Positions 811 to 26,375 are shown, numbered from the stretch's first letter. The stretch: DNA of 64,000 nucleotides from an uncultured delta proteobacterium (GCA_903881505.1 CAIRTM010000047.1:16248-80247); one strand, 5' to 3'. A program made the numbers and translations. The notes: generated from the letters alone by a model not told the origin.

Positions 811-1290
811 ATGAGGAATCTCAGAAACGCTGCAATCATCATGCTGCTTGCAGCACTGTGCGGATGCATCACCTATCAGGCCCAGCCGGTCATGTGCCCG
901 ATGCTGTGCCGCACGCCGGCCAGCCAAGCCGACATCGCGGCTCTGTTTGACCGCTGGAACGCGTCACTGCAGACGGGTGACCCCGACAGGGTAGTCGCCA
1001 ACTATGCCGAGCGCTCAATCCTGCTGCCCACCGTGTCCAACACACCGCGCCTGACCCCGGCCGAGAAGGCGGACTACTTCCATCACTTCCTTGAAAAACA
1101 GCCTTCCGGCCGGATCGACCTCAGGCACATTGACATAAGCGGCGATATGGCGGTTGACTCAGGCCTCTACACATTCACGTTCGCGAAGACCGGCGAACAG
1201 GTGCACGGGCGCTATAGCTTTGTGTACAAATGGGACGGCAAACAGTGGCTGATCATCAGCCACCACTCATCCATGATGCCGGAACCGTAA
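811..1290 (+). CDS. SnoaL-like/DUF4440 (NTF2-fold) domain protein with N-terminal signal/lipoprotein-like peptide
   Basis: ORF track 159 aa. N-terminus MRNLRNAAIIMLLAALCGC is a hydrophobic signal peptide with Cys. The rest resembles NTF2-like DUF4440/CaMKII-association domain proteins. Confidence 0.5.
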   Translation: MRNLRNAAIIMLLAALCGCITYQAQPVMCPMLCRTPASQADIAALFDRWNASLQTGDPDRVVANYAERSILLPTVSNTPRLTPAEKADYFHHFLEKQPSGRIDLRHIDISGDMAVDSGLYTFTFAKTGEQVHGRYSFVYKWDGKQWLIISHHSSMMPEP

Positions 1291-1369
1291 CGATACCGCC
1301 GCAGCAGCAGACCATAACGTTTTTTCGGCTGCCGCGCGCGGGTGCGCACGCCCCTTGAGATAATTTTTA

Positions 1370-1399
1370 TTGACGCACCACCGGCGCACGGCTATACTT
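1370..1399 (+). promoter_or_regulatory. sigma-70-like promoter candidate (TTGACG-18 bp-TATACT) upstream of the first GT-C membrane protein gene
   Basis: ttgacg at 1370-1375 and tatact at 1394-1399 with an 18-bp spacer, in the intergenic region before the 1605 start. Confidence 0.3.
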
Positions 1400-1604
1400 T
1401 TTTAAAATAAAGCGTTCCAGCCATACGTGCCCACAACACATTCCCGGGGCAGCATGAAAAGTCCGCACAGCGCCGGCATTGCATCCCGGAAGGCTGATCT
1501 GGCGCCGTTCAAGGATACACGACAATTATGATGCGAACCGGCAGGCCGCCCTCTGCCCTGCGCCCTCAACACACATAACCGCCCACTATACACAGTTCTC
1601 TGCC

Positions 1605-3176
1605 ATGTCATCCTGCAGCACATGGTTCCATACAGCAAATGCACGCTCCCTGATTTTCTATGCGGCCGCGACGCTGATTATCACAGGGCCCCGCATCGCG
1701 CGCATGATCTACCCGGAACTGATGATTGAAGATGATTTTTATCTGCAAAGCGCTTTTCTCATATCCGCCGGTGAACAGCCGTATAACGATTTTACCCTGA
1801 ACCACTTCCCGCTCCTGGAATTCATGCTTGCCGGGCTGCTGCGGCTGTTTTCCAATCCGCTCATGGTCGCGGAAACGTTCACACAGGTATGCATTGCCAT
1901 TAATACACTGGTGGTGCTGTGCATCGGCACGCGGCTGGACAGCCGGCGCACAGGCCTGGCGGCTGCAGCCCTGTATGGCTGCAGCGCCCTCATTTTCAAG
2001 TATCATCTCTACGAACGGGAGGTTTTCGCAACCACGTTCATCGTGACGGGCCTCTACTGCTGGTTTTTTATGCGCGGGAGTTCTGCCAGAGCAGTTATTA
2101 CCGCCCTTCTCTTTTGTGCCGCCTCGCTGGTCAAGCTCACCTGCATTGTACCCTTTGCGGCACTCCTGCTCTGGGCCTGCCGGCACAGGCAGTATCGTCT
2201 CTGCTGCAGTATGCTGGCCACCTGCGCACTGTCGCTTGCCGCATGCAGTTGTGCCCTGTATGCGCTGTATGGACGGGAATTTATTTTTCAAGTCTACATA
2301 TTCCACTTCATGAAGGGCTGCCGCTCTTTGCCCGGACGAATTGAATGCTTCGTGAACAACACCGATATTACTGTTTTTCTGGGTGTTCTTGGTTTGCTTT
2401 TCTACCGCCCTCGCGACACGCACGGACACTGGGGCCTGATAAAGCTGCTGATGCTCGCCTACCCGGTGTTTTTCATCTTCATCAGCTCAACGGTATGGCC
2501 TCACAATCTGCTTGAAATGCTGATTTCAGCCGCGCTTGTCGGCGGCGCCTTCATATCGCGCATGCTGCAGGGCATACCAAAGGCGGCACGGTCCGGAGCG
2601 CTGATGAAAATTATTGCACCGCGCCCGCTGCTCATCAGCGCAGCTGCTGCTGTCTCGTTTTTTTTGATACAGCCCTGGGAGATTGAAGGCGCGCGCGACA
2701 GGCTCAACCACTCTTACGGCTTTGGCGCTATCCCGCGCAGCGAAATACGCGAGGCCTCCGGCTACATACAAGAGCATACGCGGCCCGATGACTACATCTG
2801 CAGCCCCGTCCCGCTCGTTGCCTTCGCGAGCTCACGGAAGACAGTGCTGAACTACTGGGAAAGCACCGGGGTCGAGGCCTGGCTTCGTGAACGCATCGCA
2901 CACCAGGGCCTGTGGAGGACATTTCTTGAAACCCGAAAAGTCCGTTTTGTTGATCTCATAGCCGAAACATCCCTGCGCCAGACACAAACAGCTTTCCGCC
3001 GGCAGGCGCTGCTGAAGAAGCCCGTGCTTGTCGTGAAGCCGGATTTTCCGGGTGAAGAGCCTTTCGGGGCCAGACTGGCGCTGGGGATCATCGATGAATA
3101 TGCCGGAAACGTGCTGTTCCGAAACCGTTTTTTCATAATCTCCGAATGCAGAATGCGGGCACCTGATGGAAATTGA
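1605..3176 (+). CDS. polytopic membrane protein, GT-C-type glycosyltransferase-like (PMT_2/ArnT-like)
   Basis: ORF track 1479..3176. The protein has many hydrophobic segments of TM length. The N-terminal stretch YPELMIEDDFYLQSAFLISAGEQPYNDF after the first TM helix resembles the GT39/83 (ArnT/PMT) loop. Start at 1605 (MSSCSTW...) was chosen so that the first TM follows the start; alternative starts are 1479 and 1704. Confidence 0.45.
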   Translation: MSSCSTWFHTANARSLIFYAAATLIITGPRIARMIYPELMIEDDFYLQSAFLISAGEQPYNDFTLNHFPLLEFMLAGLLRLFSNPLMVAETFTQVCIAINTLVVLCIGTRLDSRRTGLAAAALYGCSALIFKYHLYEREVFATTFIVTGLYCWFFMRGSSARAVITALLFCAASLVKLTCIVPFAALLLWACRHRQYRLCCSMLATCALSLAACSCALYALYGREFIFQVYIFHFMKGCRSLPGRIECFVNNTDITVFLGVLGLLFYRPRDTHGHWGLIKLLMLAYPVFFIFISSTVWPHNLLEMLISAALVGGAFISRMLQGIPKAARSGALMKIIAPRPLLISAAAAVSFFLIQPWEIEGARDRLNHSYGFGAIPRSEIREASGYIQEHTRPDDYICSPVPLVAFASSRKTVLNYWESTGVEAWLRERIAHQGLWRTFLETRKVRFVDLIAETSLRQTQTAFRRQALLKKPVLVVKPDFPGEEPFGARLALGIIDEYAGNVLFRNRFFIISECRMRAPDGN

Positions 3177-4974
3177 TCCGAAAACCCCACGGAATCGGGA
3201 CAGGACGCCGGTACGATATGCATGCCTGTTTTTTATTACAGGGCTGGTCCTGTGTGTCCTGTATGCAACCGCCGGCACGCGCCTTCTCACCGTCTCATTC
3301 ACATACTACCTGCACAGCTACAGCTTTCAGCTGAGAAACGTCCTGTTCCTCCTGCCGGCGCTTGTTTGCTTTGCATGTGCCCTGTCCCCCGTATTCGTGC
3401 CGGTGTACAGCACGCTGCGGTCTTGTATCATGAAGCCCAGCCCCTGGATATTTTTATCCGTAACGTGCGTCGCTTTCATGACTGCCGCCGCCGGGGTATG
3501 CCTTGCGGTCCTTGGAGGAATCCCGCACATACAGGACTCTATTGTCCAGCTTTTCCAGGCGCGTATTTTCGCCTCCGGCTCTATCGCCCTGCCCTCGCCC
3601 GCACACGCGCATTTTTTTGACATGCAGTATGTAATTGATAACGGCACGATCCGCTATGGAAAATACTTCTTCGGACAGAGCATATTCCCGCTGATCGGCG
3701 TATTGATCGGGGCTCCGTGGATCATCAACCCGATTGTCGGCGCAATGACCATAATCGTTACATACATGCTGGTTAAAGATATCTGCGACGAAACAACCGC
3801 CCGCGTCACAACGCTTCTGCTGCTGGTTTCGCCTTTTTATCTGTTTATGCATGCCTCATTTATGTCGCACGGACCCCATCTGCTGCTCATGACCTCCTGT
3901 CTTTTTTCGATCATCAGGGCGTGTACCACCGGCCGTGCCCGGCACTGCCTTGCCGCCGGGCTGCTTTTCGGTATTGCCATCACGATCAAGCCGTATGACT
4001 CTTTGCTTTTTCTTCTCCCGTTTTTTTTATACGCCTGTACCGTGTGTATGCGCATGCCGGGCTTTGCCGCCAAGGTCCTCCTGTTTGCGCTGCCTGTCGG
4101 CATATGCGCGGCAGGCATGCTGTTGTACAACAAACTTCTGTTCGGCGGTTATTTAACGACCGGGTATACTCAGTACTCGCCGCACTTCAAGCTGGGCTTC
4201 GGTTCGCAAATCGGAGAAGTGTGCCTGGGGGGCGGCACCCTGCCGGGGCATACGCCGCTGGAGGGGATCAAAAGCTGCGCCAAGCTTCTGCAGGCGCTGT
4301 GTGACGACCTGTTCGGCTGGCCCGGCCTTTCGCTCGTCTTTGCATGCATGCTGTTTCTATGCTGCAGGACAACCCGCTGGGAGCGGCTGATGGCCCTGTC
4401 ATTCGCCTGTATCGTTACAGGCTATTTTTTCCTTTTCGCCACGCGCTACTCGATCTGCTACGGCCCCCGCTACTACTTTGTCAGCCTGCCGGCACTTGCA
4501 CTGTTTACCGCCAGGGGAATACTCCAATGTCCGCGACTGCTTGCGGCCGGTTTCCTGCACCGCTGGACGGGCGGCCCGGGCAGCCGAAAAGCCGCGGCAG
4601 CACTGTGCGTGATTTTTCTTATTGTCCTTTCCGGCTCACTGTACATGCCCCGGATGATAAAAACCTACGGGGATTCCTACTGGAACGTTGACAAAAAACT
4701 GGTCAACCTCGTGCGCGAACAGGGCCTGAACAACGCGCTTATTTTCGTGGAGTCCGGATACTACCGTAAGCCCCATGCTGCGCCGGACTATTACAATTCG
4801 GTATTCAATTACAATGCGCTTGATCTGGACGGCCCTGTTGTCTATGCCCGCGATTTCGGCCCGGATGAAAACCGGATACTCATGGAACACTACCCGGGCC
4901 GGGACTATTACCTGTACAGGAACACCGGCGAAGCCGGGCGCGCGCTGATCAAAATCACCGCCCCCGGCACATGA
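3166..4974 (+). CDS. polytopic membrane protein, GT-C-type glycosyltransferase-like
   Basis: ORF track 602 aa. About 12 hydrophobic helices with a hydrophilic C-terminal domain (~130 aa). Overlaps the upstream gene by 11 nt, suggesting translational coupling. Confidence 0.45.
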   Translation: MEIDPKTPRNRDRTPVRYACLFFITGLVLCVLYATAGTRLLTVSFTYYLHSYSFQLRNVLFLLPALVCFACALSPVFVPVYSTLRSCIMKPSPWIFLSVTCVAFMTAAAGVCLAVLGGIPHIQDSIVQLFQARIFASGSIALPSPAHAHFFDMQYVIDNGTIRYGKYFFGQSIFPLIGVLIGAPWIINPIVGAMTIIVTYMLVKDICDETTARVTTLLLLVSPFYLFMHASFMSHGPHLLLMTSCLFSIIRACTTGRARHCLAAGLLFGIAITIKPYDSLLFLLPFFLYACTVCMRMPGFAAKVLLFALPVGICAAGMLLYNKLLFGGYLTTGYTQYSPHFKLGFGSQIGEVCLGGGTLPGHTPLEGIKSCAKLLQALCDDLFGWPGLSLVFACMLFLCCRTTRWERLMALSFACIVTGYFFLFATRYSICYGPRYYFVSLPALALFTARGILQCPRLLAAGFLHRWTGGPGSRKAAAALCVIFLIVLSGSLYMPRMIKTYGDSYWNVDKKLVNLVREQGLNNALIFVESGYYRKPHAAPDYYNSVFNYNALDLDGPVVYARDFGPDENRILMEHYPGRDYYLYRNTGEAGRALIKITAPGT

Positions 4975-6346
4975 CCATCCCCCTGCCGCGGGCCAGCGCC
5001 GCATGAATCAGAGCCCCGAGCAGAACGGAGGTGAGCGTCGCGACAGGGAAGGAATAGCGATACATAACCGCAACGAGCAGGTACGGGAATGCATACCCGA
5101 GGATGTATGCATACATGCATCCGCATTGACGATTGAAGCACCTCCGTCCGATCAGCGCAAAAACCACGAGCGTTACGCCCGGAACGGCATAGCCGATATA
5201 CCGCAGGGCCATCCAGAACGATATGCCCGGCAGTTCCGCGTGATATCTGAAAACAAAGAAAAAGTACATGAGTCTCCTGGCGGTTGTGCGTGCAAAACGG
5301 CCGGGATCGAAGTCCCGCTTAAAGAGCTCCCGTTTCGACAGGATATATGCGCCCTCGCCAAGCCGGCTGTAGAGGAGGAACTCCTGCCCGTTAACGGCAG
5401 GATGCTGGCGTGCGAACACGGCATCATCAAGGTAGCCGTCGGATTCCGGTGAATTGCCGTTGTACAGCTCGAAAGCTCCGTTTGATTTGATAAAGCTGAG
5501 TGTGCCGGTTCTGTTTTTTTGATACAGAACATACGGCCCGATAACACAGCCCATGACAATAACCGCCGCGCACACATGCGCGGCGGCGCGAGCCGGATGT
5601 GCCCTGTGACAGGCCGTATGGGCGGCCAGCACGGCCGCGATGGCGAACGCAAGGACGGGAACGAACAAAAGCGCGACACCGGCGCACAACGAAACCGCCA
5701 GCAGCCGCACGAATGTGGTGCGTGCGAAGTACCGCATGCACAGGTAGAACACCAGCACAAAAAAGAAAGAATGAAGGTTAAAATCCTGCTGGTATCCCTG
5801 GAAGTACAGCTCAACATCCTGCAGTGAGAGCGCGAATGCCGCTGCGCCTGCAATCGCCGCGCCGGCGCTTGAAAACATGAGCAGGCCCAGGCGGTACACC
5901 ATCACGATGATTGCCGCGGACAGTACCAGTGAAATACCGAAGAGAAAAAAAAGGGCCCCGGGTGAAAAGCACCCGAACAGCTTGAAGGCGAGGCAATAGA
6001 CCATCACCGATCCCGGAGCGACCCATGCGGTAGGGCCGGTGCTGCCTCCGAAAGGGCTTGCAAACCCCTGCTGTGCGCAGACGATTGCATGCGCTATGTT
6101 GCCGATCTCAAAGCCGAAATCACTGACCCAGGGGAGCTCCGGTGCCGCCATACCGGGCTTCAGCGGACATGCGGCCGTTTGAAACAGCGCCGGATGGCGC
6201 TGCACGTTCATATACAGCAGGCCGATGCGCAGCAGCAGGGCGATGGCAATAATACACGGAAGGATTGTTCTGGTATGTCTCATGGCGATCTGCACGTCAG
6301 CGTTCCGCGCTCTCATGCACGGCCCACGCACCTGACGCCTTTTCAA
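4955..6346 (-). CDS. polytopic integral membrane protein (uncharacterized, possible GT-C-like)
   Basis: ORF track 463 aa, highly hydrophobic. An alternative start at 6283 (MRHTRTIL...) is possible. Its 3' end overlaps the convergent gene 3166..4974 by 20 nt. Confidence 0.4.
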   Translation of the reverse strand: MKRRQVRGPCMRARNADVQIAMRHTRTILPCIIAIALLLRIGLLYMNVQRHPALFQTAACPLKPGMAAPELPWVSDFGFEIGNIAHAIVCAQQGFASPFGGSTGPTAWVAPGSVMVYCLAFKLFGCFSPGALFFLFGISLVLSAAIIVMVYRLGLLMFSSAGAAIAGAAAFALSLQDVELYFQGYQQDFNLHSFFFVLVFYLCMRYFARTTFVRLLAVSLCAGVALLFVPVLAFAIAAVLAAHTACHRAHPARAAAHVCAAVIVMGCVIGPYVLYQKNRTGTLSFIKSNGAFELYNGNSPESDGYLDDAVFARQHPAVNGQEFLLYSRLGEGAYILSKRELFKRDFDPGRFARTTARRLMYFFFVFRYHAELPGISFWMALRYIGYAVPGVTLVVFALIGRRCFNRQCGCMYAYILGYAFPYLLVAVMYRYSFPVATLTSVLLGALIHAALARGRGMVMCRGR

Positions 6347-6354
6347 TACATGCT

Positions 6355-7935
6355 TTACCGCAGGGGCTTTGTTCGATCCGTATTCGCATACAGCCGCCAG
6401 GGGCCGCTTTGTTTGACAATGCTGAAGTGCCGTAATTTCTCCCGGGCCTGCGCGGGGATATCGCCGCGCACCAGCAGGTAATCAAGGCCGCCGTACCGGC
6501 CGTCATATTCGCACGCCCCCTTACCCACCCAGCCGATATACCTGGGCAGCACATCCGTACCCACCCGGCGGCGGATGGCAAACGAGCGCTCGTCGGTAAG
6601 CCGCGTTGTGCTGATGCCCCGCCGCCAGACCATGCAGTAGTCCGGAAAGTTGTCATACATGGAAACATTACGGAAGCGGTAGTCATAGATCAAGCCGCCG
6701 ACAACGGCATCGGCGGCGCAGCCGGCGAACAGCTCCTCATTAAAACCGGCGTTGGCGGAGTCAAAAGCTCGGAAACACTGCAGCCACAGGGCAGCGTGCA
6801 CAGCGACGGCAGCGCATATGCATATTTTCATCCACGCAGGCAAAACGCGCGGAGCCGCAAGGCTGCCGGCTATAATGACGCCCAGGAAAACCAGGACCGA
6901 AAACCGCTGGTATAAAAAACTGTAGCCGGGCAGCGCCACCGGCATAAAAAGCGCACATGCCACGCTGCATCCCAGAAAAATACATATGCAGTAAAACCCG
7001 GCCGGGCGCGCGGTTCTGCCCTTGTGTCGTTTTTGCAGAAACGGGAATGCAGCAAAAAACAAGGTGGCCAGCGAAAATGCAGCGGCCGCCGCATATCCGG
7101 ACAGCGTGCCTGACAGCCGGAAATTATCATGGATCATGACAGCTCCGCGCTGCCAGAAAGAGCCCGCAAATGAATGCCGGTAATAGTGCAGCAGCGCCTG
7201 CATCATGGAGGATCCGCCGTACTCGCGGGAATCGATTGTATACCAGGCAGCGAAAAGCACCATGCCCGGGATGCAGATCCCCAGATGCACGGGGAAACGG
7301 CGCCATGCGCCGTGGCGGCACATGTCAAACAGCACGCAGGCGGCATACACCATGACGGCATACAGGAACGCCATGGCGTGCATGAAAAAAATACCGGGCA
7401 GCAGCACGGCAATCCACAGTGCCGCCGGCGCGCTTCGATGTTCGATATAATCGATTACAGCGTACAGCAGGAAGAGCAGGGCCGGTACTGCGATGGTAAA
7501 GCCCGTAAACCCGTAGCAGACGTTGATGTTGTAAAGAAACAGGAACGCCAGCAGGCCATACCATGGATTGCCTGTGCAGCGGCCGATCAGCAGCGCTGCT
7601 CCCGCAACGAACAGCACTGCATACATGACGTAAAAAAACCTGTTGGCCGCTTCGACACCCGGAAACAGCTTAGAACCGCAGAGCACCGTATGAACCACAT
7701 TCGGCCGCGGAAACATATTCAGCGAAAAAATTTTTTCAAACTGATTATCCGGATTGCCATAGGATTTATATATTTCAGCAAGCGCCAGATGGTTGGGCAT
7801 GTCCAGAAAGGGGTACAGCCTCTGAAAGCCGAAATTATAACTGTGGACGCTTAAAAGGACGATAAACGCAAGCCAGAAGAACTTGTCCCTGAACCCAGGG
7901 CTGCGCGCAGGCTCCTCGCTTTTCACGGCTATCAT
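6355..7935 (-). CDS. polytopic integral membrane protein (uncharacterized)
   Basis: ORF track 526 aa with more than 10 hydrophobic helices. ATGA start/stop overlap with the upstream gene 7932..9500. Confidence 0.4.
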   Translation of the reverse strand: MIAVKSEEPARSPGFRDKFFWLAFIVLLSVHSYNFGFQRLYPFLDMPNHLALAEIYKSYGNPDNQFEKIFSLNMFPRPNVVHTVLCGSKLFPGVEAANRFFYVMYAVLFVAGAALLIGRCTGNPWYGLLAFLFLYNINVCYGFTGFTIAVPALLFLLYAVIDYIEHRSAPAALWIAVLLPGIFFMHAMAFLYAVMVYAACVLFDMCRHGAWRRFPVHLGICIPGMVLFAAWYTIDSREYGGSSMMQALLHYYRHSFAGSFWQRGAVMIHDNFRLSGTLSGYAAAAAFSLATLFFAAFPFLQKRHKGRTARPAGFYCICIFLGCSVACALFMPVALPGYSFLYQRFSVLVFLGVIIAGSLAAPRVLPAWMKICICAAVAVHAALWLQCFRAFDSANAGFNEELFAGCAADAVVGGLIYDYRFRNVSMYDNFPDYCMVWRRGISTTRLTDERSFAIRRRVGTDVLPRYIGWVGKGACEYDGRYGGLDYLLVRGDIPAQAREKLRHFSIVKQSGPWRLYANTDRTKPLR

Positions 7936-9500
7936 TGCACACCACCCTCGTCTGCCTTCTGCAGGCGGAATAAAACGCTCCCCGCCTGACGTGCCCAGTG
8001 AAAGCCCGTCCGGTGTTGCTCAGCGATAAAATTCAGCGCCGGCGCAACAACGAAAACGGGGCGTTCAGACAGCAGCTTCTCCAGGGCTGCGGGATTCCCG
8101 CCATAGCGGCCTGCCATAGCAGTGTGATTCTCCAGCGCAACGCCCCCGGCACCGGGCGCTGTCATCCGGGTCAGCAGCAATGGGTAGTACGAAGTGCTGT
8201 CACACACGATCATGCCGTCAGGGGCGGCTTCGCTCAATGCTGCCGAGGCAAAGCGCTCGGCTGATCGCTCGGTATGCTTCCAGGGCACAATCCAGTAGCG
8301 CATTTCATCCCGGAACGGCAGAACGCGGTCGCGTTTGACGCTGATATGCAGCCTGTTCATGGCGGCGGGCAGCACGGCATACGTCAGCGGCATCAGGACA
8401 ATTGAAGTCAGGCAGGCGGCGATAACCGCATTCCTCCGCGCGGCCGTTCGGCGTGCGAGGGCATCAATGCCCACCGCCATGCCCAGGCTGAACAGCACCA
8501 GTGACGGCAGAATAAAGGTAAACTGATCAGGCACTGAGTAACGCAGGAAAAAAACACCGTGCAGGCCCAGCAGGGCGAACAGCGGCCAGGCGGTCTGTCT
8601 GCCGGCTGTTGTACGCATCTGTATCCAGCCAACGATGCCGAGGAACAGACCGGCATGTACAAAATTCAGGCTGCTTAAGGCGGCATTGACGCCCATCAGG
8701 CCCCAGCCCGCGCGTACATTAAAGACCTGCCCGGCATACCCGCTGAACAGCATTGATGCAGCGGCCGCCTGTATGTCACCGGTTTGCATGGCCGTACGCA
8801 TCACCAGCCAGGCAAGCGGAGCCGCCCCGCACACACATGCAGCCGCGGCGGCCGGTACGGCTGCGAATTCAAGACGGCGGCCTTTTATGAAAACCAGCAT
8901 GCACGCGGCATAAACCGGCACGCTCAGCAGCGCCAGATTATGGATCCCGATATTCAAACCGAGAAGCAAAAAAAGGCCGGAAAACCCCTGTATCGAAGGG
9001 CGGCGAAGACAGGAAAAAAGCGCGATCAGCTCACCGCTGAAAAACGCCGCGTTCCATGTGTACACTTCAGTAATGGTCGACAGCCACCACGGCGTATGCA
9101 TCACCGCCAGCATGCCGGCTGTCAGCAGGCCTGTCCAGCTCCTGCCGGTTAGCATCCAGCCGAGGATCGCAACGTTGGCCAGTGTAACGGCCATGCCTGC
9201 TCCGCTGCACAGGCTCAGGCGCAGCCATTCAGCTCCGAAGGGCAGCAGCAGAAAAAGCCGTGCTATGATTATATAGAGCGGATGTGCAAGCGCAAGGCCA
9301 AGACTGCCTGTATAGTCACCCGTCAGCGCCCTGAACTGCAGCATGCCGCTGTCCTGCCAGCCGACACCCGGCTGCGCTGTCAAAGCGTACAGAACAAATC
9401 CGGCAGATGCGACACCGAACCAAAGGGCGCTGCGTGCGAGCGGACTCCCGGGAAAGCGCGATATCGGCTGCTGCATGGCCATGGATACCCCCCTACACAC
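7932..9500 (-). CDS. DUF2723/TMEM260-like polytopic membrane protein (GT-C-like)
   Basis: ORF track 522 aa. The N-terminal region (GVGWQDSGMLQFRALTGDYTGSLGLALAHPLYIIIARLFLLLPFG) resembles the DUF2723 family (TMEM260-like) and has many TM segments. Overlaps the PHP gene by 8 nt. Confidence 0.45.
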   Translation of the reverse strand: MCRGVSMAMQQPISRFPGSPLARSALWFGVASAGFVLYALTAQPGVGWQDSGMLQFRALTGDYTGSLGLALAHPLYIIIARLFLLLPFGAEWLRLSLCSGAGMAVTLANVAILGWMLTGRSWTGLLTAGMLAVMHTPWWLSTITEVYTWNAAFFSGELIALFSCLRRPSIQGFSGLFLLLGLNIGIHNLALLSVPVYAACMLVFIKGRRLEFAAVPAAAAACVCGAAPLAWLVMRTAMQTGDIQAAAASMLFSGYAGQVFNVRAGWGLMGVNAALSSLNFVHAGLFLGIVGWIQMRTTAGRQTAWPLFALLGLHGVFFLRYSVPDQFTFILPSLVLFSLGMAVGIDALARRTAARRNAVIAACLTSIVLMPLTYAVLPAAMNRLHISVKRDRVLPFRDEMRYWIVPWKHTERSAERFASAALSEAAPDGMIVCDSTSYYPLLLTRMTAPGAGGVALENHTAMAGRYGGNPAALEKLLSERPVFVVAPALNFIAEQHRTGFHWARQAGSVLFRLQKADEGGVQ

Positions 9501-10359
9501 CCCGCACGATGCCCGCGGAAGCCGAGCGGCGTTCTCTCACAGCCTGCAGCACGTCATCCGGCACATAGAGCGATCCCCGGCCGGTGCCGATTTCAATGCC
9601 GTTTACGTTTGTGCCGTGAAAATCGCTGCCGCCGGTTTCAACCAGGCCAAACCGGCGTGCAAGGCTTTTATACAGCTGCTGCTGGGCGCTTGAGTGCTCG
9701 GGATAATACACCTCGATTCCCTGCAGGCCATAGCCTGTAAGCTCAGCCACCAGTTCCTGCAGCACGGCGCTGCTGTGCGGCCCGATAATGGCCGGGTGCG
9801 CCAGCACGGCAACACCGCCGGCATCACGGATACAGGCGATGGCCGCATCGGCCGGAAACCGGTATTTATCAATATAGGCGCAGGCCCCCTTTTTCAAATA
9901 ACGGTCAAAGGCCTCGCGCACCGAGCGGACAAATCCCTGCTGAACCATGACCTTGGCGAAATGAGGACGGCCGACCTGTCCGGTTTCAGCCTCGCGCTCG
10001 ACCTGTTCAAGGGTTATGGCAACCCCCAGCTCGCGCAGTCGCGCGATAATGCGGGGATTGCGCTCATTGCGCGCCTGCTGCAGCACATCGATGCGCCCGC
10101 GCAGACGCTGATCATCATGGTGAATATAGTAGCCCAGCACATGCAGGGTTCCCAGATGATGCTCAGCGCTTATCTCAATTCCCGGCACCACCTCGATGCC
10201 CGCATCAATGCCGGCTGCAAGGGCCTCGGCAACACCCTCAACCGTGTCGTGATCGGTAACGGCAAGCGCGCTCAGTCCCCGCCGGCAGGCATGGCGAACG
10301 GTCTCGGCCGGGCTCAGCGTGCCGTCGGAGGCGTTGGTGTGCACGTGCAGATCAATCAT
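9493..10359 (-). CDS. trpH: PHP-domain metal-dependent phosphoesterase (TrpH/YciV family)
   Basis: MIDLHVHTNASDGT... is the classic PHP N-terminal His motif and the C-terminus carries a GGSDFHG motif. 288 aa. Confidence 0.8.
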   Translation of the reverse strand: MIDLHVHTNASDGTLSPAETVRHACRRGLSALAVTDHDTVEGVAEALAAGIDAGIEVVPGIEISAEHHLGTLHVLGYYIHHDDQRLRGRIDVLQQARNERNPRIIARLRELGVAITLEQVEREAETGQVGRPHFAKVMVQQGFVRSVREAFDRYLKKGACAYIDKYRFPADAAIACIRDAGGVAVLAHPAIIGPHSSAVLQELVAELTGYGLQGIEVYYPEHSSAQQQLYKSLARRFGLVETGGSDFHGTNVNGIEIGTGRGSLYVPDDVLQAVRERRSASAGIVRGV

Positions 10360-10508
10360 GAGCAGTCCGGGGGCAGCACGGTGCTGCGGCGTCAGGGGTT
10401 ATGGGTCGAACGTCCAGGCACCGGGCCGGGCCGGCGCTCATTTTTCACATCACACTGCGTGCCAATTGTAACGGGGCCCCGGCGGACGGCTGAGGCTCCC
10501 GGTACAGC

Positions 10509-11120
10509 CTACGCGCAGGACACCGCCAGACGCTCGCCGATTGAAAATGCCTGCGCGAGATCGGCCGCTTTTTCAAGAACCTGGGCGCGCTGCAGATTGC
10601 CGGTGCTGAGCATTTCGCCTATTTTCTGGAGATGAAAATCCCGCATGTTCGCATCCATCACCATAAGCACAAGCGCTGATGACGAGGGTGAGAAGTCCCC
10701 CTGGCTGACAATGCTGACCGCTTTTTTACCTTCGATAAGGGGCCGGGCCTCGGCATGAACGATCGCACCCTGGGCATCATATTCAACGTGCATTTTTAAA
10801 AGCGGCATCATGCGCGCAAACAGATTGGTCAGTGCCGCTGAGATGGTCCGGCCGTGATTGGGACTGGCAAAAATAAAGGCATCCGCCTGCTGCATGCGCT
10901 CAAGAATCGGGCCCATGTCGTCGCGAAGTGGGCAGTCCCTGCTCCCCTGAAAAACAGTATGCGCACCGCAGGCATTACAATATTTAATATCAAGATCATA
11001 GAGGTAAAGCTTTTCGGCCTCGACCGGCGCCCTGCTGACGGCACCGGCGATCACCCGGTCAACCAGAATATCGGTGTTTGAGCCCTTGCGGGGGCTGCCG
11101 ACAAACGCCATGAGTTTCAT
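10509..11120 (-). CDS. flavodoxin-fold NAD(P)H-dependent FMN reductase / iron-sulfur flavoprotein-like
   Basis: MKLMAFVGSPRKGSNTDIL is the FMN_red/Isf-type N-terminus. A compact Cys cluster CNACGAHTV...CP is typical of iron-sulfur flavoproteins. 203 aa. Confidence 0.55.
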   Translation of the reverse strand: MKLMAFVGSPRKGSNTDILVDRVIAGAVSRAPVEAEKLYLYDLDIKYCNACGAHTVFQGSRDCPLRDDMGPILERMQQADAFIFASPNHGRTISAALTNLFARMMPLLKMHVEYDAQGAIVHAEARPLIEGKKAVSIVSQGDFSPSSSALVLMVMDANMRDFHLQKIGEMLSTGNLQRAQVLEKAADLAQAFSIGERLAVSCA

Positions 11121-11358
11121 ACGGTATCCTCCGTGTCAGAGCAGCGCACGTCCGGCCGGCTGCCGGCGCTGCATAATCTTACCCTCCAGGCCGTCATTGT
11201 ACAAGGATTTGTCTGCGCTGGCAACTTAAAGCAACAGCGTGTCCGCTCATCCGCAGGCTGCGCGCCCCGGCAGGCTGAACAAAACTGCGGCGGAATATTC
11301 AGGCTGGCTAGAAAAAAGTTTGCGGGCTCAAAAAAGCCGGCAGACTCATCAGGGCGGG

Positions 11359-11433
<75 letters not shown>

Positions 11434-11441
11434 AAAAAAAA

Positions 11442-11518
11442 TGGAGCGGGAAACGGGATTTGAACCCGCGACTCCGACCTTGGCAAGGTCGTACTCTACC
11501 ACTGAGTTATTCCCGCTC
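11442..11518 (-). tRNA. tRNA-Gly (GCC)
   Basis: The reverse complement is GAGCGGGAATAACTCAGTGGTAGAGTACGACCTTGCCAAGGTCGGAGTCGCGGGTTCAAATCCCGTTTCCCGCTCCA. The anticodon loop is TTGCCAA, so the anticodon is GCC. It has a GGTTCAAATCC T-arm. Confidence 0.8.
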
Positions 11519-11659
11519 AGCAACCTTGAAATTATAGCCGACCTGTCGTCTTTGTCAACAAATAAATACAAAAACGGCTGAACGAGGCCCCTGCACGGGC
11601 ATACTTCATATGTGCAGCCCGCCCTGACCTGTCAGAACCCGCAGGGTTCGCCGCTGCCC

Positions 11660-12364
11660 TCATGTGGCGTCTCCAGGTTGATTCTCTGCGTGGGGCGGCT
11701 GCCGTACCGGGACGGTTTCGTTCATGAGCTGCACGACAGGATAGTCGTCAAAATAGTCAATAATATTCAAACAGGCGTACGTCTGTTCGAGGCGCACTGC
11801 GCTGTTCAGGTCAAGTCCGAGGGCATCGCACAGCACCACCCTGTTCAAGCCCCCGTGGCCGACCAGAAGGACTGTGCCGCCGGCATGTTCGCGAAGCAGC
11901 CTCTTCAGGCGCGGCAGGGCCCGTTCGCGCACATCCGCAAAGCTCTCGCCTCCCGCAACGCGAAACGAGCCGATGCTGCGGGCGCGTTCGCTGAATTCCT
12001 CCTGGAAGCGCTCCAGGATTTCGGCAAGCGTCATGCCCTCCCAGCGGCCGATATTGATTTCGCGGAATTCAGGACACGCAACCGGCGCAATGCCGCGTGC
12101 GCCGGCGAGCAGACGCGCCGATTCAACCGTGCGCACAAGGTCGCTGCAATAGATTGCGTCGATCGGCACGCCTGCCAGACGGCCCTCAAGCAAGCGTATC
12201 TGCGCGCGGCCCTCGTCGCTGAGTGCAACATCCCGGTGGCCGACATAGCGCCATTGGCGCGAGGTCACCAGTGCCCCATGGCGCGCCAGGTACAGCCGTG
12301 TGCGCGCAGCATCTCCTGCAGCCTTGCCAAGGGCAGCCGGTATATATCCTGATTCAGCTGCCAT
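11660..12364 (-). CDS. histidine phosphatase family protein (phosphoglycerate mutase-like / CobC-like)
   Basis: The catalytic RHG motif (LARHGA) lies near the N-terminus. 234 aa with a PGM-like fold pattern. Confidence 0.6.
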   Translation of the reverse strand: MAAESGYIPAALGKAAGDAARTRLYLARHGALVTSRQWRYVGHRDVALSDEGRAQIRLLEGRLAGVPIDAIYCSDLVRTVESARLLAGARGIAPVACPEFREINIGRWEGMTLAEILERFQEEFSERARSIGSFRVAGGESFADVRERALPRLKRLLREHAGGTVLLVGHGGLNRVVLCDALGLDLNSAVRLEQTYACLNIIDYFDDYPVVQLMNETVPVRQPPHAENQPGDAT

Positions 12365-12566: not shown

Positions 12567-13394
12567 CTAGAGGTTGTACATGTCGTGCAGAAGCCTGACC
12601 AGGGCGATGTTGTCGGAATGCCCGGTCATATTCGCCGTGATTTTCGCCCTGAGGGGACGGCCGAGCAGATAGAGATCGCCCACCATATCCATAATCTTGT
12701 GCCGCACGAACTCGTCCGGGAATCGCAGGTCCGTGTTCACGATTTTTTCATCATCAATCAGGATAAAATTATTGAGCCGGCCCCCGCTTGCCAGGCCGCG
12801 CTCATTGAGCGCCTCGATATCCTTCAGGAACCCGAACGTGCGTGCCGGGGCGATCTCGCGTTTGAAATCCTCGGCATCCGCCATGACGAACCTGTATTCC
12901 TGCCGGCCGACCGGCCGGGGATAGTTCAGGGTATAGTGAACCGAAAATACATCGGCAGGCTCAACCGTCAGGAATTTCTTCGTACGATCGGCCTCGCCCA
13001 GGCTGTGGCGCCTGTCGACAATGATTTCATCCAGGGGTTCTTCCTGCTCTTCAATCCCGGCGTCCTCGACCATCTGGCAGAAATCAAGGGCCGATCCGTC
13101 CATGATGGGAACCTCGTTATTGATCTTGACCATCAGGTTCGAAATCCGGTAGGCATGCAGAACCGCCAGGAGATGCTCGATGGTGCGGGCCGCCGCCCCG
13201 TCAGCCTGCAGGCTGGTTGCATAGTCGGTCGACACGACATGGTGTATATTGGCCCGTACCGTTTCACCGCTTGATATATTGCCGAACAGTATCCCGCTGC
13301 CCGGGGGCAGCGGCGTCAGGATAAGCCCGGTCTTGTCGCCGGAGTGCAGCCCGCGGCCGCTCAGCACCATGCTGCGCTTGAGCGTGCGCTGCAT
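12567..13394 (-). CDS. lpxC: UDP-3-O-acyl-N-acetylglucosamine deacetylase LpxC
   Basis: MQRTLKRSMVLSGRGLHSGDKTGLILTPLPPGSGILF matches the LpxC N-terminus; HKIMDMVGDLYLLG and other conserved blocks are present. ATG at 13394. There is no stop codon between it and the upstream regulator ORF (see findings). Confidence 0.8.
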   Translation of the reverse strand: MQRTLKRSMVLSGRGLHSGDKTGLILTPLPPGSGILFGNISSGETVRANIHHVVSTDYATSLQADGAAARTIEHLLAVLHAYRISNLMVKINNEVPIMDGSALDFCQMVEDAGIEEQEEPLDEIIVDRRHSLGEADRTKKFLTVEPADVFSVHYTLNYPRPVGRQEYRFVMADAEDFKREIAPARTFGFLKDIEALNERGLASGGRLNNFILIDDEKIVNTDLRFPDEFVRHKIMDMVGDLYLLGRPLRAKITANMTGHSDNIALVRLLHDMYNL

Positions 13395-14735
13395 GCGGTG
13401 CTGCGTCCGGTTCTCCCGCGTCAGGATGATGTTGTATTCGCCGACATACTTCTTGAGCTGCTTTTCACTGACGCCGATCCGTGCGGCCGTTCGCTTGATA
13501 TCACGGTCATTGCGGCGCAGGTGGTACAGCAGGAAATTCTTGCGCCAGGCATCCTCGGCCTCCTTCATGGTGGCGTAGCGCTCGTGGGAACGCGAAACGT
13601 TGTACTGCATGTCGTCGCGCACGGAAAGAGGAATATCAAGCGCTGAAACGGTCCTGGAATGCAGCGACACTACGATCTTCTCAACCAGGTTCTTCAGTTC
13701 CTTGACATTGGCGGGCCAGTCGTAGTTCATGAGCATTTCAAGCGCCTCGTCATCGAAGCTCTTTTCCCGCACGCCGTACTCGCTGCAGGACAGGGTCATG
13801 AAATGCTTGAGCAGCAGCGGGATATCGCCGCGGCGCTTGCGCAGCGGCGGCAGGCTGATGCGCTCAGGGAAAGAATCTGCAAACGCGGCCGAGAGTTTGC
13901 CGGCCGCGCGCGCCTCATCGGCCTCAAGGACCGATGAGGTTACGACGCGCAGCTGCGGGTCCGCCTGGCGCTTGCGCAGAAATTCCGCGATGCGGTCCTG
14001 CAAAGCGATATCAAGCGCCTCCGCCGAGGCAAGGTACACGACCGCCCGGCCCGGCTGCGTCAGCAGCCCTGCCTTGCCGGAACTGTCGCCGAACAGTTCC
14101 AGGGAAGCCTCGTCGCAATCGTAAAGGGGACAGTTGAGCCTGTGGAACGAAGCGAAACGTCCGCTTTTCTCGCCGCCAATCAGCATCCGGGCCGCGATCT
14201 CCTTGCCGGTACCGACCTCGCCGCTCAAAAACACATGTGCTTTTGTCGCGGCAATTTTATCAATACGCCTGCGGATGTCGATAATCTCCGGCGCCTCACC
14301 GGTCAGCCTGCTGCGTTCGCGCGCAGCGGCGGACCCATCGACTGCCGCGGCGGCCTGCGCGGCGGCCTGCCATTTCTCGGTAATGCGCCTGACGGTATTG
14401 AGCACCACGTCGAGCGAAAAAGGCTTCTCGAGGAAATCAAACGCCCCCTGTTTCACCGCCTACACGGCCGTGTTGACCGTGCCGTGGCCGGTCATCATGA
14501 CCACCTCGATCGCGGAGTTGAAATCCTTGACGGCTTTCAGGGTTTCCATGCCGTCCATGCCGGGCAGCCATATATCCAGAAACACGATATCGACCGGCTG
14601 CGACTTGATAATGCGCATGGCCTGCGCCCCGTCGGATGCGCTCAGCAGCGTGTAGCCTTCGTCTTCAAGGCTGCCGGCAAGCGATGTGATGATGTTCTGC
14701 TCATCGTCTACCAGGAGGATGACCGGTGTTTTCAT
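13395..14735 (-). pseudogene. ntrX: NtrC/NtrX-family sigma-54-dependent response regulator, interrupted by an in-frame TAG and lacking its own stop codon
   Basis: Receiver domain (ORF 14460..14735, LLVDDEQNI...DIWLPGMDG), then TAG at 14460-14462. The frame continues as AVKQGAFDFLEKPF..., with Walker A GEVGTGKE, a sigma-54 AAA+ domain and a Fis-type HTH (AARIGVSEKQLKKYVGEY). It reads straight into lpxC after an 11-aa linker. Confidence 0.6.
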
Positions 14736-20242: not shown

Positions 20243-20422
20243 GTATGGATTATCCTCATGCATCCATCGGCTGAGCTTGAATCAAGGCCTGTCATTTCGA
20301 CCGCGGGGAGAAATCCTGGTTTTAAGATTTCTCAGCCGCTTTTCCATCCTCCGCAGCAGGCTGCTGCGGAGGACGGGCGCTCCTTCGAAATGACAGTATG
20401 GCTGCGATACTTTGAAAAATGC
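20243..20422. repeat. composite intergenic repeat, copy A (conserved left and right arms flanking a ~112-bp insert with an internal inverted repeat and GC hairpin)
   Basis: Left arm tgtatggattatcctcatgcatccatcggctgagc and right arm aaatgacagtatggctgcgatactttgaaaaatgc. Both match copy B at 58484-58573; the right arm differs at 1 of 36 positions. Confidence 0.45.
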
Positions 20423-20436
20423 TCTAAACGCACCCA

Positions 20437-21186
20437 TCAATCTTCAAATATACTGAGCACACCATCACCGCCCCCGTTTTCACGTATCGAAAGCTCCGCA
20501 TCGGCAACTTTTTTAAACAGGCCCGAGAGTGCCTGGTCTGCGACATACCGGCCCAGTTGCTCCTGCGTTACTGCCTGCACAGCCTCGGCCTGCTGCTGAG
20601 CGGTTTCGATCTGCTGCTGAACATCCGCCGCCGCCGCAATTGCCTGGTCCGCCGTTTCCCTGGCTTCCTGCAGCCTGCCATACAGCTCGACGGCCCCGTT
20701 GAGATGGAGCTCTTCGGTTATCGCAGGCACCAGGGCCTCCCGCACGACTGCGCCGCCCTTTTCTTTCAAATAATCGGTGGCGGCGGTATTGCCGGCATCC
20801 AGCAGATTCTCAAGGGTGGGCGCATCCATATTCGTCACGATATTTTTCAGGGCAGGCCCGGCCGCCGGAATAGTATGTTCAGCCGCCTGGTTTATCAGGG
20901 TTTCCAGCAGCGCTGCCTGCGGATTTTTCTGCACATCCCTGGCGATACCGATGGCCAGCCCCAGGGGCGGAGGCAGCAGGATGCGCACCAGCGGGTCATC
21001 GAGAAACCCGCCCTTCGCCGCCAGCTGACCGACCACCGAATCAATACCGTTTGTCAGCCGCTGGCCGAATTGATCGGCTAAGAACTGCTGGACCTTGACG
21101 TGTGCGGTCTGCTGGACGCTGTCGACAAAAGAGGCACAGGAAGACACAAACATTGCTGCCAGCATAAGTATTGCACTGCGACGCAT
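20437..21186 (-). CDS. DUF4197-like secreted/lipoprotein
   Basis: Signal peptide MRRSAILMLAAMFVSSCASF. The mature part is rich in Q/A/L and resembles DUF4197. Start placed at 21186; ORF track extends to 21261. Confidence 0.5.
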   Translation of the reverse strand: MRRSAILMLAAMFVSSCASFVDSVQQTAHVKVQQFLADQFGQRLTNGIDSVVGQLAAKGGFLDDPLVRILLPPPLGLAIGIARDVQKNPQAALLETLINQAAEHTIPAAGPALKNIVTNMDAPTLENLLDAGNTAATDYLKEKGGAVVREALVPAITEELHLNGAVELYGRLQEARETADQAIAAAADVQQQIETAQQQAEAVQAVTQEQLGRYVADQALSGLFKKVADAELSIRENGGGDGVLSIFED

Positions 21187-21493
21187 AACGATCCCCAAAA
21201 AGTATCCATTTATAACAACACGAAAATCAGCGACACTATACTGATTTTGTATTTTTATCAATCGGAATTAACATGGTGTCCCCAGATTTGCCCCAACCCT
21301 CCCGCTTTTTTGCTAAAAAAGTCGGATTTTACGAAGTTCGTATAACATGAGAATAGCCATGTTATGCGAAATTACGACATCAAATTCATTGACTTTCACA
21401 TGCTTTAAATATATCGTCCGGCCATCATAACCAGCCAAAATCCACCAAACCGGAAGTTCGCATATTAATTGTTAGACAAACGAAAAATAAATT

Positions 21494-22129: not shown

Positions 22130-22203
22130 TCTTAAAACAGACATAGGGGAGGTGCTATAAAGATACTATAGCCATCGATTAAATCATTTGGACAATATTA
22201 CAC

Positions 22204-23043: not shown

Positions 23044-23170
23044 CAGCCAATAATATAAGAACTCCCAACACGTCAATGCTGCGGACAGCCGTTGGCCGCC
23101 GCTGATATTTACGTTAGTTTTTAAAATATCATGGGTCAAGACCCAACTGAAATGTCAGTGGGGGTTACTA

Positions 23171-23731: not shown

Positions 23732-24014
23732 CAAATCGCTCGAGAATCGACGCGCTTAAATTCACGCGCGCCTCAGCTCAATCGTTACAGTATCTCGCAG
23801 CGTTTCCATCTCCTCCAGCCTGCGCAGCCCAGCGCGCACCGGCAGCACGACCACGCACGCGCTCATAATCAGGGCGAACGAGGCCGCGATTTTGATCCAG
23901 CCAAACCCGTCCAGTTCGCGGCCCTGAAACGCCGCCGTCACCGGCAGAAGAGCGGTATCGGGACAGGCGCATTACGACCTGAAAACAGTGCGCGCGACGC
24001 AGAAAGCGGGTCCG

Positions 24015-26313: not shown

Positions 26314-26375
26314 AGGTCAGCCCTGAACAAGAACGCTCCCCGGCTGCATGCAGTACCGCAGGCATGCCGGCCGTA

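Follow-up and report, generated by a model that had tools for sequence, protein, structure and literature searches.

A variable locus of putative GT-C glycosyltransferases in an uncultured delta-proteobacterium

Several described systems are close to the locus considered here, in which five consecutive genes (gA to gE) encode putative GT-C glycosyltransferases. ArnT, the undecaprenyl-phosphate L-Ara4N:lipid A transferase (PMT_2, CAZy GT83), is one enzyme, whereas five different ones are found here; structure-based identity to it is only 11-14%, and arnA-F are not nearby. When the window, i.e. the whole 64-kb stretch of a Gram-negative, uncultured delta-proteobacterial MAG that was analysed, was searched for the arn operon, the matches listed included no formyltransferase/decarboxylase, no aminotransferase, no ArnC-type GT2 and no SMR flippase. 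The mycobacterial arabinan and mannan enzymes (EmbA/B/C, AftA-D, PimE; GT87), which go with the UbiA-DprE1-DprE2 donor pathway, are similar to the present set in that several distinct GT-Cs are clustered, each presumably making one linkage from a polyprenyl-phosphate sugar. Unlike the mycobacterial system, the window has no DPA-pathway genes, and its host is a Gram-negative delta-proteobacterial MAG. In the GtrA/GtrB/GtrC and GT136 pentofuranose systems, a lipid-phosphate-sugar synthase, a flippase and a GT-C decorate an exported glycan, and more elaborate loci with several GT-Cs were reported by Kelly et al. 2024 (PMC11127046). In contrast to these three-component systems, none of the matches listed for the window (25 of 36 families) is a donor synthase, a flippase or a Leloir glycosyltransferase, and a UbiA-type polyprenyl-phosphoribose synthase with a flippase beside the GT-Cs was likewise not seen among them.

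A preliminary description had named five membrane-protein ORFs together with those of a PHP-domain protein, a SnoaL-like lipoprotein and a sixth membrane protein, and all of them are present. The features are as follows.

SnoaL/CaMKII_AD-like putative lipoprotein: 811-1290, plus strand; conserved flanking gene
Accessory segment gA+gB+gC, ~5.1 kb: 1293-6372, no strand; missing from the closest relative in which both flanks are present
gA: 1605-3176, plus strand, 523 aa; putative PMT_2/PIG-M-like GT-C glycosyltransferase; accessory
gB: 3166-4974, plus strand, 602 aa; putative PMT_2-family GT-C glycosyltransferase with 3 extra N-terminal TM helices; accessory
gC, maximal ORF: 4955-6346 (TTG 6346), minus strand, 463 aa; putative divergent PMT_2/ArnT-like GT-C glycosyltransferase; accessory
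gC, probable call: 4955-6316, minus strand; start ATG 6316
gD: 6355-7935, minus strand, 526 aa; putative GT-C-fold membrane protein; conserved core gene
gE, maximal ORF: 7932-9500 (GTG 9500), minus strand, 522 aa; putative TMEM260-like (DUF2723) GT-C glycosyltransferase; core
gE, probable call: 7932-9482, minus strand; start ATG 9482
PHP-domain phosphoesterase (TrpH/RNase AM or pAp-phosphatase-like): 9493-10359, minus strand, 288 aa
gG, putative sixth GT-C (PMT_2/GT39-like): 24064-26313, minus strand, 749 aa; large C-terminal domain
PRK07208-like FAD oxidoreductase: 26376-27725, minus strand; recurrent gG neighbour

These are real genes rather than chance ORFs, because full-length homologues exist for all. 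They form two tightly packed, converging units, in agreement with the two convergent operons proposed earlier. As read from the sequence, the overlap is 11 nt between gA and gB, 20 nt between the 3′ ends of the convergent gB and gC, and 4 nt (ATGA) between gE and gD. The gC start is most likely ATG 6316, which is favoured because an identical database protein (P0001) has 453 aa. For gE the start is most likely ATG 9482, preceded by the ribosome-binding site GGGGGG; the protein collection lacks the version of 522 aa, and relatives have 513-519 aa. With the shorter starts, PHP/gE and gD/gC are separated by gaps of 10 nt and 38 nt, so that the overlaps of 4-20 nt claimed previously stand for gA/gB, gB/gC and gE/gD and not for these two junctions.

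GT-C assignment and family relations

The earlier assignment to the GT-C superfamily was confirmed for all five proteins, using Pfam, family profiles, PDB matches, structural comparison and an acidic residue in the first loop. A hydropathy scan showed that every protein is polytopic, with 6-9 strong TM segments each. In their AF2 models, gC and gD have at least 11 long helices, consistent with the GT-C_A-type core of ~7-13 TM helices, and the predicted cores of both resemble solved GT-C enzymes in three dimensions. An invariant or near-invariant acid occurs in the first extracytoplasmic loop after TM1 (gA E42/D43, gB D124, gC E80, gD D45, gE D50); it is kept in every family alignment and directly follows an N-in TM helix. 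We infer that these acids face the periplasm, given the helix order of the models and the fact that the N-termini are rich in K/R (positive-inside rule). Pairwise BLAST among the five detected no similarity, and they are not recent paralogues. Judged by sequence comparison, they belong to at least three unrelated families, namely PMT_2-like (gA, gB and gC), TMEM260-like (gE) and one without a model (gD).

Against Pfam PMT_2 (PF13231), which has a gathering cut-off of 26.1 bits, gB scored 40.5 bits and gA 25.5 bits, 0.6 bit under the cut-off (E 1.7e-5, profile positions 2-154 of 160). The gC family profile also matches gB at E 1.8e-9, and D124 of gB is invariant in the motif P-x3-D-x-I-x-QLFQA-x-IF. 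In addition, gA shows a weak Pfam PIG-M match, its family profile matches the PDB GPI mannosyltransferase I at E 1.8e-5, and its family aligned with the gC family in hhalign with a probability of 96.6% (E 6.9e-10); E42-D43 is the near-invariant pair after TM1. An exhaustive search recovered 291 representative relatives of gA, and no counterpart was found among the related loci fetched. gC itself has no Pfam match, PMT_2 included, and PMT_2 is matched by 16 of the 24 members of its family (best E 1.1e-14). No PMT_2 match was obtained for gD or gE.

To our knowledge, no member of the bacterial TMEM260-like family has a demonstrated function. Three of the four members of the gE family match Pfam TMEM260-like/DUF2723 (PF11028; best E 8.3e-9), and the PDB structure of TMEM260 (9rql) is matched by the gE protein (E 4.7e-5) and by the family profile (E 2.5e-5). 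The similarity is with the N-terminal GT-C module of TMEM260, a protein O-mannosyltransferase, and Asp50 of gE, in the invariant motif WQDSG, aligns with the predicted catalytic Asp52, whose role the D52A variant was made to probe, according to PMC10214176. Unlike TMEM260, the C-terminal region of which contains TPR (PMC10214176), gE scored 18.9 bits, under the PF11028 cut-off of 24.2 bits, and its C-terminal part is a different conserved domain; none of the five proteins, gE included, gave a Pfam match to TPR or MIR.

Neither Pfam nor NCBIfam includes a model of the gD family, whose members were found in MAGs only. The protein has a C-terminal alpha/beta domain of ~130 aa, profile comparison found its family unrelated to those of gA, gC and gE, and tblastn against phage and plasmid collections gave no match. 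In the structural comparison of the gD model, AftA, AftD and AftB were among the top matches, at a sequence identity of 9-11%. The likeness to the mycobacterial arabinan/mannan enzymes includes the surroundings of homologues, since in three Cytophagales MAGs (L020, L023 and L024) the gD homologue lies between UbiA, an FAD_binding_4 oxidase, an SDR and a HAD phosphatase, and this UbiA/DprE1-like/DprE2-like/phosphatase layout fits the published pentofuranose pathway (PMC11127046). The UbiA there is 48% identical to an annotated decaprenyl-phosphate phosphoribosyltransferase, and the UbiA/flippase adjacency that is a feature of GT136 systems was seen for these three homologues only. Weak EpsG matches occur in 2 of the 39 members of the gD family; the GT136 founder is predicted to be EpsG-like by CDD (PMC11127046). 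In Zixibacteria, gD homologues are flanked by Wzy_C, a FemAB-like GNAT, a DegT aminotransferase and a polysaccharide deacetylase.

Core, accessory and neighbouring genes

Conservation of the five-gene block in related genomes had been named as a check, and the block is not conserved as a unit. The closest relatives with comparable flanks (L118, L119, L120 and L007) have PHP-gE-gD only, which in the nearest relatives directly adjoins the next conserved flanking gene. According to blastn, L118 is collinear with window positions 18366-6373 and then jumps to 1292-712, with 1293-6372 (gA, gB and gC) missing between gD and the SnoaL gene, and L120 jumps from 6380 to 452. Neither flanking repeats nor mobile-element traces were found around 1293-6372. 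The gE-gD pair is the conserved core. The gB/gC pair is shared with L001 (66% nucleotide identity) and, in tandem order, with L005, and other lineages reshuffle gB, gC, gD and gE: gD adjoins gE in a reshuffled order in L009 and gC in L029 and L039, and homologues of gC, gE, gD and gG are on one contig in L003/L010. The identity of the GT-Cs to those of relatives is 35-69%. The premise that GT-C genes occur singly is contradicted by runs of 4-7 in L001, L005 and a Chondrinema plasmid.

The PHP gene and the SnoaL-like gene had also been counted as parts of the system. PHP is probably co-transcribed with gE-gD and is most likely a housekeeping neighbour: it is 82-87% identical in relatives, far above the range of the GT-Cs, and it lies among the housekeeping genes MobA and FMN reductase (MobA precedes it in L001, L119 and L120). 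No role for it in glycosylation is shown, because it adjoins GT-Cs within one closely related clade only. It scored 48.5 bits with Pfam PHP (PF02811; cut-off 26.4), 210 bits with the NCBIfam nucleoside-bisphosphate phosphatase model NF041577 (cut-off 400) and 186 bits with RNase RNM (NF047791; cut-off 375). The SnoaL gene, which matches Pfam CaMKII_AD (61.6 bits), DUF4440 and SnoaL_2, proved to be a conserved flank only; its homologue directly follows gD in L118, and in L001, L119 and L120 it is not beside the GT-Cs.

Proposed function and alternatives

On balance, the locus is probably a variable island of inner-membrane GT-Cs for periplasmic cell-envelope glycosylation from polyprenyl-phosphate sugars. 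In the cytoplasm, sugars would be loaded onto undecaprenyl phosphate by enzymes encoded elsewhere, which may be GT2 polyprenyl-phosphate-hexose synthases, a UbiA-DprE1-DprE2-type polyprenyl-phosphate-pentofuranose pathway, or both. The lipid-linked sugar would then be flipped to the periplasmic face, where each GT-C would form a single linkage by adding a single sugar to an acceptor of the cell envelope, most probably a glycan (the LPS core, the O-chain or a different polysaccharide with a lipid anchor). gC-gB and gA would be accessory modules gained and lost at the same site, so that strains would differ in the number of decoration or elongation steps.

A polyprenyl-phosphate-linked donor is suggested by genomic association in other lineages. 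Homologues of gC and gG adjoin membrane GT2s in L003 and L042, and the best NCBIfam matches of these GT2s (AglJ, Dol-P-hexose transferase, PpgS and ArnC) put them in the GtrB/ArnC class, as in the three-component systems. Such links may not transfer to the present locus, because the homologues in other lineages are only ~31-32% (gD) and ~41-43% (gC) identical. A more far-reaching proposal, which we regard as doubtful, is that the gD family represents new CAZy-level polyprenyl-phospho-pentofuranose (arabinofuranose-type) transferases that, with gE and the accessory PMT_2-like enzymes, make a periplasmic lipoglycan by GT-Cs. If this were true, Gram-negative Thermodesulfobacteriota and several candidate phyla would build or extend a periplasmic lipoglycan entirely by GT-C enzymes, in an arabinan- or mannan-like assembly line known until now from Mycobacteriales only.

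The same enzymes might instead be protein O-glycosyltransferases that act as PMT and TMEM260 do, with polyprenyl-phosphate donors supplying mannose or a different sugar and proteins of the periplasm, outer membrane or S-layer receiving it. We consider this unlikely, as PMT_2 includes ArnT and many glycan and lipid transferases too, the five proteins show neither TPR nor MIR in Pfam and gE ends in a different domain, and the neighbourhoods of homologues are of the polysaccharide type (Wzy_C, DegT, deacetylase, DPA pathway).

Clustering could also mean that the site is a hot spot of recombination, where GT-C genes that are unrelated and have separate targets have collected outside any common pathway. 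Since the accessory genes are missing from the nearest relatives, joint action of all five is not required; the number of GT-Cs is 2 in L118, L119, L120 and L007, 7 in L001 and 5 here, gA lacks a counterpart in any related locus, and GC3 is 0.65-0.69 in these genes versus ~0.81 in GuaA, GuaB and NtrY. Nevertheless, distant lineages (L003, L005, L009, L029 and L039) again bring members of these families together, in arrangements that are unrelated, indicating functional coupling at least of gD with gE or gC and of gB with gC, and the short overlaps indicate co-expression. A locus without any shared pathway therefore seems improbable.

Rather less credit is given to a role of gE-gD in ArnT-like modification of lipid A or the LPS inner core, tied to an envelope regulon (NtrY, an NtrX-LpxC fusion, phosphatases). 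The whole clade keeps NtrY, NtrX::LpxC, His_Phos_1, FMN reductase, (MobA), PHP, gE and gD on one strand, and ArnT is among the best structural matches of the models. However, nucleotide identity across these collinear genomes is 66-87%, so the shared order is due to descent and not to selection acting independently. In genomes outside the clade, lpxC does not lie close to gD or gE, the arnA-F genes are absent here, and between LpxC and the PHP operon there are two tRNA genes and gaps of 150-540 nt. That the five are not enzymes but transporters or some other kind of polytopic membrane protein, the outcome that would have overturned the GT-C assignment, is very improbable, since none resolved as a transporter when this was tested, and the high TM content and the missing Pfam matches of gC and gD themselves are all that speaks for it.

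The sixth GT-C protein

gG lies 14 kb away from the five-gene block. The preliminary description called it a related protein, and it is indeed a putative GT-C, as judged from a 73%-identical homologue with PMT_2, related to the five at the superfamily level only; no profile-level relation to gE was detected. gG itself has no Pfam match, its homologues (70-73% identical) carry PF13231, and the NCBI name of the 73% one is glycosyltransferase family 39 protein. D36-E37 forms an invariant motif. In L003, the gG homologue occurs together with two gC-family genes and the membrane GT2. The oxidoreductase next to gG matches Pfam Amino_oxidase and NAD_binding_8 and NCBIfam PRK07208 subfamilies, and the oxidoreductase of the L003 cluster shares 29% identity with it (E 1e-47).

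GT-C identity of the membrane proteins

The ORF map placed the five adjacent membrane protein genes (gA to gE) at exactly the coordinates of the preliminary description. They are listed here with a sixth gene further along the window (gG), the phosphoesterase gene beside gE (PHP) and the SnoaL gene flanking the gA side.

Membrane protein genes and flanking genes, from the ORF map
811-1290, plus strand, SnoaL/CaMKII_AD-like putative lipoprotein gene
1605-3176, plus strand, gA
3166-4974, plus strand, gB
4955-6346, minus strand, gC, maximal ORF (likely start ATG 6316)
6355-7935, minus strand, gD
7932-9500, minus strand, gE, maximal ORF (likely start ATG 9482)
9493-10359, minus strand, PHP gene
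24064-26313, minus strand, gG, large membrane protein

Overlaps of 4-20 nt between genes had been described. Reading of the junctions gave an overlap of 11 nt for gA and gB, of 20 nt for the 3′ ends of the convergent gB and gC, and of ATGA for gE and gD, but PHP/gE and gD/gC become short gaps when the likely starts are used. For gC the most likely start is ATG 6316, short of its maximal ORF, because the identical database protein (P0001) has 453 aa. For gE, too, a start inside the maximal ORF is most likely, at ATG 9482, which is preceded by a GGGGGG ribosome-binding site; its relatives have 513-519 aa, and a 522-aa form is absent from the protein collection. All six proteins are polytopic and full-length homologues were found, and therefore the genes are real. 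Promoter and terminator scans gave no useful excess over shuffled expectation, and the Rfam scan returned two tRNAs only.

In every family the first loop that follows an N-in helix holds a conserved acidic residue (E42/D43 in gA, D124 in gB, E80 in gC, D45 in gD and D50 in gE), at the site of the catalytic base of solved GT-C enzymes. The five thus have intact catalytic-loop residues, and the GT-C identity proposed earlier is upheld; we are highly confident that all five are GT-C glycosyltransferases, at the superfamily level only, with gB passing PMT_2 and gA (PMT_2) and gE (TMEM260-like) borderline. A reading of the proteins as transporters is excluded.

The Pfam model PMT_2 scored 40.5 bits on gB (cut-off 26.1), and on gA it fell 0.6 bit short (E 1.7e-5) with nearly the whole model aligned. 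The gA family, which reached 291 representatives in an exhaustive search, carries the near-invariant E42-D43 pair after TM1, and its profile matched GPI mannosyltransferase I in the PDB (E 1.8e-5) and aligned with the gC family at 96.6% probability. No Pfam match was found for gC itself, whose AlphaFold model has a pLDDT of 90.2, and yet 16 of the 24 members of its family matched PMT_2. PDB sequence searches with gB, gC and gD, and with the gC and gD profiles, returned FliQ noise only. At the profile level, gA, gB and gC form one PMT_2-like assemblage. Recent paralogy was rejected, because all-against-all BLASTP among gA to gE gave no significant match.

On gE the TMEM260-like model (DUF2723) scored 18.9 bits, below the cut-off of 24.2, and it matched three of the four family members (best E 8.3e-9). 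The sole real PDB match of gE is the solved TMEM260 structure, with Asp50, within an invariant WQDSG motif, aligned to TMEM260 Asp52. For that residue, the TMEM260 report predicts a catalytic role and describes a D52A variant made to test it (PMC10214176). The sixth protein had been described as related. Its homologues at 70-73% identity contain PMT_2, one of them bearing the name of a GT39 protein, and D36-E37 is invariant, so that gG too is a GT-C enzyme; a specific kinship to gE, suggested by a weak BLAST match (E 0.008), found no support at the profile level.

By sequence, the protein gD matched nothing in Pfam, NCBIfam or the PDB, also when searched as a profile, and its sequence is unrelated to the gA, gC and gE families by profile comparison. 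Among the 39 family members searched, PTPS_related was touched by five and EpsG by two. The gD model has a pLDDT of 88.5 and a pTM of 0.90, and the family is recognisable as GT-C by structure only. A search of 5.8 billion proteins found 45 of its members (representatives of 90%-identity clusters), its genome matches are confined to MAGs (Thermodesulfobacteriota, Krumholzibacteriota, Zixibacteria, Cytophagales and Chloroflexia), and no family model exists for it. We regard it as a candidate new GT-C family.

A conserved pair and accessory modules

The closest relatives are collinear with the window at 66-87% nucleotide identity, and in them gE and gD are the conserved pair. One relative, L118, matches window 18366-6373, which holds GuaB, NtrY, NtrX-LpxC, histidine phosphatase, FMN reductase, PHP, gE and gD, and then leaps to 1292-712 with the SnoaL gene. 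Another, L120, leaps from 6380 to 452, and L119 and L007 have PHP-gE-gD only. These leaps past gA, gB and gC define window 1293-6372 as an accessory segment of ~5.1 kb, around which no flanking repeats or mobile-element scars were found. The SnoaL-like gene, earlier counted as a member of the locus, is merely a conserved flank. In L001, a more distant locus of the clade, PHP and gE are accompanied by a membrane protein of 526 aa that is unrelated, by two paralogues of gD, and by a convergent gC/gB pair, which the window shares at a nucleotide identity of 66%. No counterpart of gA was present in any locus fetched; further relatives of the window are Thermodesulfobacteriota MAGs.

Outside the clade the same families recur in other orders. 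A gB-like gene precedes gD and gE in L009; gD adjoins two gC-family genes in L029 and is divergent from two in L039; GT87, 514-aa membrane protein, gB-like, gC-like and gC-paralogue genes lie together in L005; and one contig (L003/L010) carries gD, gE, gC, a gC paralogue and gG. The proposed five-gene block is therefore not a conserved unit, and four to seven GT-C genes in a row are unexceptional, contrary to the premise that such enzymes usually occur singly. A hot spot collecting genes that share no pathway would also show such variable content, but these reshuffled orders support a functional coupling between the families, and we consider the hot spot unlikely.

Distant gC-like genes (25-30% identity) also lie directly upstream of COX2-cytochrome c fusions in three soil and peat metagenome contigs (L074, L083, L115).

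Proposed sugar donors and envelope-glycan pathway

Among the matches listed (25 of 36 families), no GT2, UbiA, DprE or flippase gene was present in the 64-kb window, and therefore leads were taken from homologues elsewhere. In three Cytophagales MAGs (L020, L023, L024), a gD homologue lies second in an overlapping series of UbiA, gD homologue, FAD_binding_4 oxidase, SDR and HAD phosphatase, where UbiA shares 48% identity with annotated decaprenyl-phosphate phosphoribosyltransferase proteins. The UbiA, oxidase, SDR and phosphatase genes correspond to the enzymes for making polyprenyl-P-arabinofuranose, and the position of gD inside such a DprE1/DprE2-type operon offers a concrete donor hypothesis. 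The set matches the three-component pentofuranose logic (Kelly et al. 2024, PMC11127046). Membrane GT2s, with best NCBIfam matches to AglJ, Dol-P-hexose transferase, PpgS and ArnC, adjoin gC and gG homologues in L003 and L042, and the gD homologues of Zixibacteria are flanked by Wzy_C, FemAB-like GNAT, DegT aminotransferase and polysaccharide deacetylase genes. These neighbourhoods, reached through homologues of only ~31-43% identity, point to putative polyprenyl-phosphate sugar donors and envelope-glycan acceptors.

We therefore favour, with somewhat better than even confidence in the scheme as a whole, a pathway in which enzymes encoded elsewhere would load sugars on undecaprenyl phosphate, the lipid-linked sugar would be flipped across the membrane, each GT-C would transfer one sugar in one linkage onto a periplasmic envelope acceptor, and gain or loss of accessory enzymes would vary the product among strains. 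The locus was likened to periplasmic glycosylation of the ArnT, Gtr and GT136 types, and to the mycobacterial Emb, Aft and PimE enzymes in its multiplicity of GT-Cs. Protein O-glycosylation would employ the same enzymes on protein acceptors, beside homologue neighbourhoods that point to envelope glycans, and is judged improbable. An ArnT-like modification of lipid A or core, tied to the LpxC neighbourhood, is more doubtful still. Among the matches listed, the signatures of arn and of three-component systems are absent from the window.

Antigenicity, susceptibility to phages and antibiotics, and the properties of the cell surface are governed by envelope glycans, which GT-C enzymes make or decorate. 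The gain and loss of GT-C genes at a fixed site, as shown by this locus, is as expected for surface-glycan diversification. To our knowledge, substrates have been established for very few of the bacterial GT-C families. The locus is useful to glycobiologists cataloguing glycosyltransferase families, although it overturns no concept and is not conceptually surprising.

A Chondrinema litorale plasmid (NZ_CP111066.1, 9715-26581) carries the same donor genes as the Cytophagales operon, with decaprenyl-phosphate phosphoribosyltransferase, FAD-binding oxidoreductase and SDR annotations, flanked by DUF2723, two GT39, two ~520-aa hypothetical proteins and acyltransferases. It has the appearance of a Bacteroidota locus of arabinan-like type with several GT-Cs.

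Neighbouring genes

The PHP gene had been described as leading the minus-strand operon. Its co-transcription with gE and gD is probable, but there is nothing to link it with glycosylation. In relatives, identity is 82-87% for the PHP protein and 35-69% for the GT-Cs. The protein is similar to nucleoside-bisphosphate phosphatase or RNase AM, and its gene lies beside gE only within the collinear clade. In L001 this gene follows MobA (NCBIfam), which was considered as a possible sugar nucleotidyltransferase from its NTP_transf_3 match until so identified; in L119 and L120 the corresponding place is taken by an NTP_transf_3 gene. That the protein might serve glycosylation as a phosphatase, dephosphorylating polyprenyl-P-ribose-5-P for instance, was considered and not adopted, because it is highly conserved, nucleotide/RNA-phosphoesterase-like and MobA-adjacent, and because the adjacency to gE is confined to one clade.

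In a 722-725-aa gene at 12567-14735 (minus strand), the receiver, sigma-54 AAA+ and lid domains of an NtrX-type regulator are joined in frame with an entire LpxC; this is likewise a single gene in L118 (3630-5798) and L119 (3251-5428). In the window its receiver has TAG at 14460-14462, where L118 has CAG (Gln), so that the difference is due either to nonsense mutation or to an error in sequencing. We found no paper on this fusion.

A tRNA-Cys(GCA) and tRNA-Gly(GCC) pair (11359-11516, minus strand) lies between histidine phosphatase and FMN reductase and precedes the PHP-gE-gD operon by ~1 kb, with 88-92% nucleotide identity in relatives. GC3 is 0.63-0.69 for gA to gE, PHP, FMN reductase and histidine phosphatase (1605-12364), and 0.76-0.82 for GuaA, GuaB, NtrY, the NtrX-LpxC gene and FAD oxidoreductase.

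The gG gene adjoins a PRK07208-like FAD oxidoreductase (24064-27725, minus strand), and homologues of both occur in L003 (13969-20588) with an ArnC-like GT2, a sulfatase/EptA-like membrane protein and another PMT_2 gene, which suggests a separate conserved module. Just before gG, a low-GC stretch (20400-23800) with an RDD-family gene (GC 0.38) and an unannotated 186-aa ORF (0.37; window 0.59) is probably acquired DNA. Two ferredoxin-dependent bilin reductase-like genes lie at 27884-28870 and 34836-35531 (both minus strand), one with an N-terminal 2x[4Fe-4S] ferredoxin domain, in a delta-proteobacterial MAG that is presumably non-phototrophic.
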